NCBI RefSeq assembly: GCF_003334785.1
Contig: NZ_QOWV01000010.1
Length of the DNA stretch: 64,000 bases
Strand: one strand, 5' to 3'
Source of the DNA: Escherichia coli
GTDB lineage: Bacteria > Pseudomonadota > Gammaproteobacteria > Enterobacterales > Enterobacteriaceae
Shown: one piece after another, positions 57,639 to 57,763 of the stretch
How the letters are laid out: the number at the start of each line of letters is the position of its first letter
How positions within the stretch are numbered: position 1 is the first letter of the stretch
The notes under the pieces: model-generated
Seen by the model: only the letters and a program-made list of their open reading frames with translations
Databases searched by the model: none
What the model was told of the DNA's origin: nothing
Position numbers and translations under genes: made by a program

Positions 57639-57729
57639 TTGATTATCCTTTAAAAAATAAAAACAAAAAATAAAACAAAAAGTTTAAAAAATGTCCTGCA
57701 ATATACCGAAGATTATTACAGGACCATGC

Positions 57730-57755
57730 AAAAAGGGGAGGCATTGCGCCTCCCG
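57730..57755 (-). terminator. Intra-operon hairpin + T-run downstream of nirD (possible partial terminator/attenuator)
   Basis: Reverse strand: gggaggc-gcaat-gcctccc followed by cttttt, 10-35 nt after the nirD stop. Confidence 0.45.
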
Positions 57756-57763
57756 TTAAAACA

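Follow-up and report, generated by a model that had tools for sequence, protein, structure and literature searches.

The nirD-nirC spacer of Escherichia coli, a probable operon-internal control region orthologous to a characterised Salmonella element

Partial terminators located inside operons, for example in rpsU-dnaG-rpoD, set unequal expression of the cistrons. The region between nirD and nirC of the nirBDC-cysG operon is similar to this type in that a leaky hairpin with a U run would lower the expression of the distal genes, and differs from it by the addition of RNase E processing and of a small RNA (sRNA) that acts on the distal cistron. The closest described system is that of Salmonella, in which a stem-loop (-14.9 kcal/mol) and a uridine track just past nirD were described as an 'intra-operonic terminator' (Wang, Chao, Matera, Gao, Vogel 2020, NAR 48:2126, PMC7038943). 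Northern blot analyses detected a nirBD transcript of 2.8 kb, a nirC-cysG transcript of 2.5 kb, a cysG transcript of 1.4 kb and a weak full-length mRNA, and only nirB and cysG were found to have promoters of their own (PMC7038943). The 5' ends of the nirC transcripts are located in the uridine-rich region and behave as processed ends, and the formation of the nirC-cysG mRNA requires RNase E (PMC7038943). When the hairpin and the U track were deleted, the nirBD transcripts decreased and those of nirC-cysG increased, and the repression of a nirDC-sfGFP fusion by the sRNA NarS fell from approximately 30-fold to approximately 5-fold (PMC7038943). NarS is released by cleavage of the narK 3' UTR and pairs over 14 bp with the nirC Shine-Dalgarno (SD) sequence, as seen by footprinting (Wang et al. 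2020, PMC7038943). Binding of Hfq to the U track was proposed by the authors, and the aerobic Salmonella data contain no Hfq-CLIP peak (Wang et al., PMC7038943).

RyhB/iscRSUA and GlmZ/glmUS (PMC7038943) are related cases, in which an sRNA likewise acts inside a polycistron, the downstream part decays and a 3' structure stabilises the upstream part. The protective structure of iscRSUA is a REP element, whereas that of nir is a terminator-type hairpin. As NirC admits toxic nitrite, its amount must be set apart from that of NirBD, and in the published model of uneven intra-operon expression this separation results from the terminator, the sites of RNase E and that of NarS acting jointly.

The nirD-nirC element of E. 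coli is thus already known, as the ortholog of the dissected Salmonella region, and NarS is already annotated in E. coli; the literature searched contains no direct tests of the E. coli element itself. We consider it likely that the E. coli spacer belongs to an already described type of operon-internal control region, which would uncouple the transporter NirC from the reductase NirBD. The additions made here are small and consist of comparative support, a second hairpin, a variable UUUUUA repeat and a link between the presence of the terminator and that of nirC. They indicate that the terminator is old, is kept by compensatory changes and tracks nirC, and that every part of the Salmonella element is found in the shorter E. 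coli spacer.

The spacer and its nirD-proximal hairpin

The region under study lies within a 64,000-nucleotide stretch of E. coli DNA, referred to here as the window. Positions 57639 to 57763 correspond exactly to the nirD-nirC spacer, which is 125 nt long on the minus strand (Table 1) and in which RefSeq has no annotation. On the transcript strand it reads, from the nirD stop codon to the nirC start codon, UAA-UGUUUUAAC-GGGAGGC-GCAAU-GCCUCCC-CUUUUU-GCAUG-[GUCCUGUAAUAAUCUUCGGUAUAUUGCAGGAC]-AUUUUUUAAACUUUUUGUUUUAUUUUUUGUUUUUAUUUUUU-AAAGGAUAAUCAA-AUG. The segment from 57400 to 58000 is 100% identical to that of E. coli K-12 MG1655, and a search of 5426 complete E. coli genomes found it in all of them. 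Folding of the entire spacer gave a z-score of -4.9, and none of 200 shuffled sequences folded equally well. A search of positions 56500 to 58500 against Rfam 15 with permissive E-values yielded no family that reached its gathering threshold, the best scores being at chance level (22 bits against a threshold of 51 for sroE, and 19 against 376 for IsrM).

Table 1. Features of the nirBDC-cysG region and of the nirD-nirC spacer (window coordinates)
Feature	Positions	Strand	Remarks
nirB	58087-60630	minus	ORF and MG1655 annotation
nirD	57764-58090	minus	ORF and MG1655 annotation
nirD stop codon TAA	57764-57766	minus	
Hairpin 1, GGGAGGC/GCAAU/GCCUCCC	57736-57754	minus	-13.6 kcal/mol
C + U5 tract (CUUUUU), directly 3' of hairpin 1	57730-57735	minus	
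Hairpin 2, GUCCUGUAAUA...UAUUGCAGGAC	57693-57724	minus	11 + 3 bp, -13.5 kcal/mol, followed by AUUUUUU
U-rich leader	57652-57692	minus	32 U of 41
nirC Shine-Dalgarno and first two start-codon bases, AAAGGAUAAUCAAAU	57637-57651	minus	NarS duplex
nirC start codon ATG	57636-57638	minus	
33-codon ORF, MPPLFAWSCNNLRYIAGHFLNFLFYFLFLFFKG	57643-57744	minus	ATG in hairpin 1 loop, stop in nirC Shine-Dalgarno
nirC	56832-57638	minus	ORF and MG1655 annotation
cysG	55440-56813	minus	ORF and MG1655 annotation

Hairpin 1 starts 9 nt past the nirD TAA and has a 7-bp stem (six G-C pairs and one A-U pair) and a 5-nt loop. The original prediction had placed a 7-bp GC stem, followed by CUUUUU, about 10 nt past the nirD stop, which is correct as to position, length and U run, although the stem is not purely GC. 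The folding energy, a check for which it had also asked, is -13.6 kcal/mol (Table 1). Terminated nirBD transcripts would be expected to be released at the C + U5 tract and, since this U run is short (a C and then five U), termination is expected to be weak.

Hairpin 1 has the G+C-rich stem (within the range of about 5-14 bp), the short loop, the adjoining U run and the compensatory stem changes by which intrinsic terminators are recognised. A strict filter, which required a perfectly paired stem of 7 bp or more with six or more G-C pairs, and five or more T in 8, retained six distinct sites on the two strands of the 64 kb, hairpin 1 among them, against about one in shuffled sequences. A loose terminator scan of the nir region showed no enrichment (11 hairpins found, 7.7 +/- 3.3 expected). 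Two other terminator-like hairpins of the window may be mentioned. The first, at 20133-20160 on the plus strand, directly follows a 450-codon ORF (18778-20130, probably envZ), and its stem, CGGGAGGC...GCCUCCCG, is nearly identical to that of hairpin 1, which is probably a coincidence. The second, at 60858-60883 on the minus strand, is strong (10 bp, eight of them G-C) and is located 3' of tsgA, just before the nirB promoter region.

Comparison with Salmonella and other Enterobacteriaceae

The Salmonella sequences compared were those of S. enterica subsp. arizonae and diarizonae. E. coli hairpin 1 aligns base for base with the hairpins of both subspecies, a single loop base being different. The arizonae hairpin, TAATTAATTTTGGGAGGCGCAACGCCTCCCCTTTTTTG, has a folding energy of -14.8 kcal/mol in our calculation, compared to the published -14.9, and the arizonae locus, TAATTAATTTT-GGGAGGCGCAACGCCUCCC-CUUUUUUG, has a spacer of 194 nt, compared to the '~200 nt' of the paper, and also contains the 'TTAATT' stop region mentioned there (PMC7038943). 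The match to the arizonae hairpin, its energy and its spacer length identify E. coli hairpin 1 as an ortholog of the characterised element. E. coli has in common with the Salmonella element the operon, the position past the nirD stop, the U run, the NarS site at the nirC SD and a nearly identical hairpin, GGGAGGCGCAAYGCCUCCC. The E. coli spacer of 125 nt differs from the arizonae spacer of about 194 nt, which contains an ERIC-like insert, and E. coli, unlike Salmonella, has hairpin 2 and a U repeat that reaches the SD, its U run after hairpin 1 being one U shorter.

On the basis of this orthology, we infer that the E. coli spacer behaves like that of Salmonella, from which the effects of deletion and the dependence on RNase E and on NarS are taken. 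Hairpin 1 and its short U run would form a leaky Rho-independent terminator, able to halt a fraction of the polymerases coming from the nirB promoter. Transcripts that stop there would constitute the nirBD mRNA, with a 3' end shielded by the hairpin. The read-through RNA would carry a long, untranslated and extremely U-rich leader, and cleavage by RNase E would separate nirBD from nirC-cysG; Rho might then cause a further early stop within nirC. NarS, an Hfq-dependent sRNA from the narK 3' UTR, would pair over 15 nt at the nirC ribosome-binding site and thereby lead to a translation block and to decay, the U-rich region upstream of its site being a probable landing site for Hfq. The hairpin 2 of Escherichia, with a U run of its own, would probably provide a second weak stop, or else protect the 5' end of the processed nirC-cysG mRNA.

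Conservation was assessed in 80 NirD-encoding loci, one genome per species. The gene that follows nirD is nirC in 51 of them and directly cysG in 29, and the nirD-nirC spacers, measurable in 50 of the 51 loci, range from 67 to 402 nt. A hairpin of the GGGAGGCGCAAYGCCUCCC type followed by U5 to U7 is present 5 to 10 nt past the nirD stop in Escherichia, Citrobacter and S. enterica subsp. arizonae and diarizonae, and at the same position in Klebsiella, Leclercia, Silvania, Kosakonia, Phytobacter, Siccibacter, Huaxiibacter and Atlantibacter. In an alignment of hairpin 1 from 37 taxa, 87% of the cells were paired, and double changes were found in five of the nine pairs; 7 sequences, for example, have C-G in place of G-C, and 10 have G-C in place of A-U. 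The covariation score was matched by none of 500 shuffles, and all slid registers scored worse. A terminator-like hairpin at most 25 nt past the nirD stop was found in 42 of the 51 loci with nirC and in 2 of the 29 without it, counts that are not phylogenetically independent, and one deletion could remove both the hairpin and nirC.

The same comparison bears on a somewhat unlikely alternative, according to which hairpin 1 is mainly an RNA stability element: the polymerase would read through, RNase E would cut in the spacer, and the hairpin would block 3' exonucleases from the nirBD fragment. This explanation was raised by Wang et al. themselves, and the dependence of nirC-cysG formation on RNase E (PMC7038943), the many RNase E-like motifs of the spacer, the short U run and the lack of a listed Term-seq 3' end in E. 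coli are in its favour. However, U5 to U7 after the stem is conserved across genera, whereas an exonuclease barrier would not need a U run, and the U run has been lost where the hairpin survives without nirC, in Lelliottia (L047) and in a soil MAG (L066). In addition, the Salmonella deletion raised the downstream transcript (PMC7038943). The two roles of hairpin 1, terminator and stability element, do not exclude each other.

The nirC-less loci (L030-L036, L041-L043, L045-L047, L049-L052, L054-L058, L061, L066, L070, L076 and L077; at about 1825-1980) belong to Enterobacter, Kluyvera, Lelliottia, Pseudocitrobacter and others, and have cysG approximately 105-150 nt after nirD. Most of their spacers contain another conserved hairpin, for instance AACGGCAGGAAAAACCGUAUGUUCUGUACGAUUCCUGCUGUU. 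Beyond hairpin 1, the spacer is highly plastic and carries inserts in Citrobacter, Salmonella, Klebsiella and Phytobacter that we take to be REP-like and ERIC-like, labels given by eye against the consensus sequences of these elements. Such insertions 3' of the nirD terminator are found repeatedly (loci L007-L028, L059, L064 and L067).

Hairpin 2, the U-rich leader and the NarS site

Hairpin 2, which was absent from the original prediction, is located between hairpin 1 and the U-rich stretch. It was passed over by the terminator scan, presumably because its contiguous 11-bp stem encloses a 10-nt loop, the limit being 8. Among the loci compared it is restricted to Escherichia, and 5197 of the 5426 E. 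coli genomes have one copy each of its K-12 form. The upper-stem variants found in E. coli and its sister species are transitions only, and pairing is kept. In the hairpin 2 of the E. albertii type, the apical part is different and the basal stem is retained with one G-C to A-U double change; a megablast search detected this allele in none of the 5426 E. coli genomes. The possibility that hairpin 2 is a dispersed repeat of the REP or MITE type was considered and rejected, since it occupies only one place per genome. A function as a second weak terminator or as a 5' protection of the processed nirC-cysG mRNA is plausible.

No other 41-mer of the window, whichever strand is considered, contains as many U as the U-rich leader that follows, the runner-up having 24. 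The A/T string quoted in the original prediction occurs once, at 57650-57693. That prediction of about 45 nt of nearly pure A/U before nirC is borne out, but the run does not follow immediately after hairpin 1, because hairpin 2 intervenes. The leader is an imperfect repeat with a period of 6 or 12 (UUUUUA / UUUUUG). RNase E-like RNWUU motifs occur nine times in the spacer, seven of them in the leader, against an average of 2.1 in 125-nt segments of the window. As to Hfq, the spacer contains a U-rich single strand next to a hairpin, as would be expected of a candidate site for the proximal face or rim, and no (ARN)n distal-face motif of at least three ARN triplets was found in the spacer and the first 30 nt of nirC. 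By analogy with Salmonella, the U-rich stretch probably serves mainly as U tail, as RNase E substrate and as a probable Hfq platform.

An added role of the U-rich stretch as a translational enhancer is possible. Ribosomal protein S1 binds U-rich leaders, and U- or AU-rich sequences can act as translational enhancers. The nirC leader resembles the S1-bound enhancers in being an unstructured U-rich sequence just 5' of the SD, although several nirC orthologs are without such a stretch, and the role in nirC is putative. We would only tentatively consider that boosting nirC translation is the main function of the stretch, through capture of S1 or of the 30S subunit beside a good SD (AAGGA), which would offset the scarcity of read-through mRNA. 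The extreme U content just 5' of the SD points in this direction, as do the orthologous leaders: in 29 of 50, U makes up at least 50% of the 40 nt that precede the SD region, even in leaders whose sequences cannot be aligned. The same holds for the NirC fusions, which were translated at more than 5 times the level of NirB fusions according to Harborne et al. 1992, as cited by a modelling paper. On the other hand, in Salmonella arizonae and in several Citrobacter, Klebsiella and Phytobacter loci, an ERIC-like insert is placed directly before the SD, where U amounts to only 7-10%, which indicates that a U-rich leader adjoining the SD is dispensable. A boost of translation is compatible with the main explanation, that of an operon-internal control region. 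If the fusion ratio cited from Harborne et al. is correct, the block between nirD and nirC is leaky and by no means complete, or it is compensated by strong translation of nirC.

The U-tract repeat (57652-57681) varies among natural E. coli (loci L084, L088 and L089). Compared to K-12, whose spacer is 125 nt long, it is expanded by UUUUUA units amounting to 18 nt in PSUO2, 24 nt in VG38-53E1 and 30 nt in A4, which have spacers of 143, 149 and 155 nt, respectively. All repeat-expanded strains carry the one NirD/NirC allele, and their hairpin 1 is a G.U variant. It is conceivable, but we consider it quite improbable, that the Escherichia spacer goes beyond the Salmonella design, with hairpin 2 as a tandem attenuator or 5' cap and with the UUUUUA copy number tuning NirC or the sensitivity to NarS/Hfq. 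If this were true, such tuning by repeat number of the NirC level or of the NarS/Hfq sensitivity would be heritable and quickly reversible.

At the nirC start, nucleotides 144-158 of E. coli narS (b4813), AUUUGAUUAUCCUUU, are perfectly complementary over 15 nt to positions 57651-57637, a segment that spans the SD and the first two bases (AU) of the start codon. The E. coli and Salmonella elements thus share the site at which NarS pairs with the nirC SD, and the block AAGGAUAAUCA just upstream of the nirC AUG is kept in most of the orthologous spacers. The pairing of NarS with nirC is also supported by RIL-seq data from E. coli, as stated by Wang et al. 2020 (PMC7038943). Since the E. coli U repeat runs up to the SD, the U-rich region adjoins the NarS site, compared to a distance of about 200 nt in Salmonella. 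The original prediction had also suggested that the spacer might act through Hfq, RNase or translational control. This proposal is supported by the RNase E sites in the Salmonella U track, by the need for the track in NarS repression and by the proposed binding of Hfq (PMC7038943), and in E. coli the NarS site has been preserved. An ERIC-like insert, mentioned by Wang et al. as a 170-nt insertion, is present in the narS gene of E. coli (L083, 1838-2021).

E. coli transcript data and the remaining alternatives

Published E. coli data sets contain information on the nirD-nirC junction, which in K-12 coordinates lies between nirD (3496551-3496877) and nirC (3497003-3497809). Adams et al. 2021 (eLife, PMC7815308, supplementary file 2) reported a Rho region with its best position at 3497031, i.e. 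nirC codon 10 (Rho score 3.95, p = 6e-12). DirectRNA-seq without bicyclomycin gave 586 reads in the 800 nt preceding this position and 24 in the 800 nt following it, and in the presence of the inhibitor 920 and 149, respectively (PMC7815308). In these 800-nt windows, the reads therefore drop 24-fold across the junction, and still approximately 6-fold under Rho inhibition, which is compatible with Rho acting in addition to either an intrinsic stop or unequal mRNA stability; the 24-fold drop could in part be Rho-dependent and could also originate from mRNA stability rather than termination. Together with the Salmonella deletion (PMC7038943) and the orthology of the hairpin, the 24-fold drop speaks for the original proposal that partial termination sets the balance between nirBD and nirC-cysG. 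The curated Term-seq 3' ends of three aerobic conditions (LB, M63) include none in K-12 3496800-3497099 (Adams et al., PMC7815308), which is weak negative evidence, as the operon is poorly induced in aerobic LB and M63.

The Rho region raises the question of whether the junction drop is mostly due to Rho-dependent polarity, favoured by a ribosome-free leader and by a weakly or repressibly translated nirC, with the hairpin being incidental. We consider this unlikely. The significant Rho region at nirC codon 10 (Adams et al.) argues for it, but the 6-fold drop persists in the presence of bicyclomycin, hairpin 1 covaries, and the leader, with a single C in 41 nt, is unlike a Rho loading site.

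It is very improbable that the AT-rich spacer DNA is an internal promoter of nirC-cysG: AT-rich DNA is often promoter-like, but no sigma-70-like consensus site was found on the minus strand between 55000 and 61500, the Salmonella nirC 5' ends are processed, and only nirB and cysG have promoters of their own there (PMC7038943). Still less probable is a small protein encoded in the spacer by the 33-codon ORF of Table 1, whose frame is open in K-12 but whose ATG has no Shine-Dalgarno sequence, whose codons are mostly those of the U repeat and which has no RefSeq annotation. This ORF, presumably the historical 'nirE', was judged to be non-coding because its frame is not conserved, the E. albertii-type alleles being cut to 6 codons. 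The nirE of Harborne et al. 1992 was reportedly untranslated.

A Rho region designated 'antisense nirD' was also listed by Adams et al. 2021 at K-12 3496855 on the minus strand (approximately 57786 on the plus strand of the window), with 262 reads upstream and 12 downstream in the absence of bicyclomycin and 405 and 66, respectively, in its presence. Transcripts that run antisense through nirC thus stop just past the spacer, so that the spacer has the appearance of a boundary in both directions. These antisense transcripts could originate from a promoter-like sequence at 57137-57165 of the plus strand.
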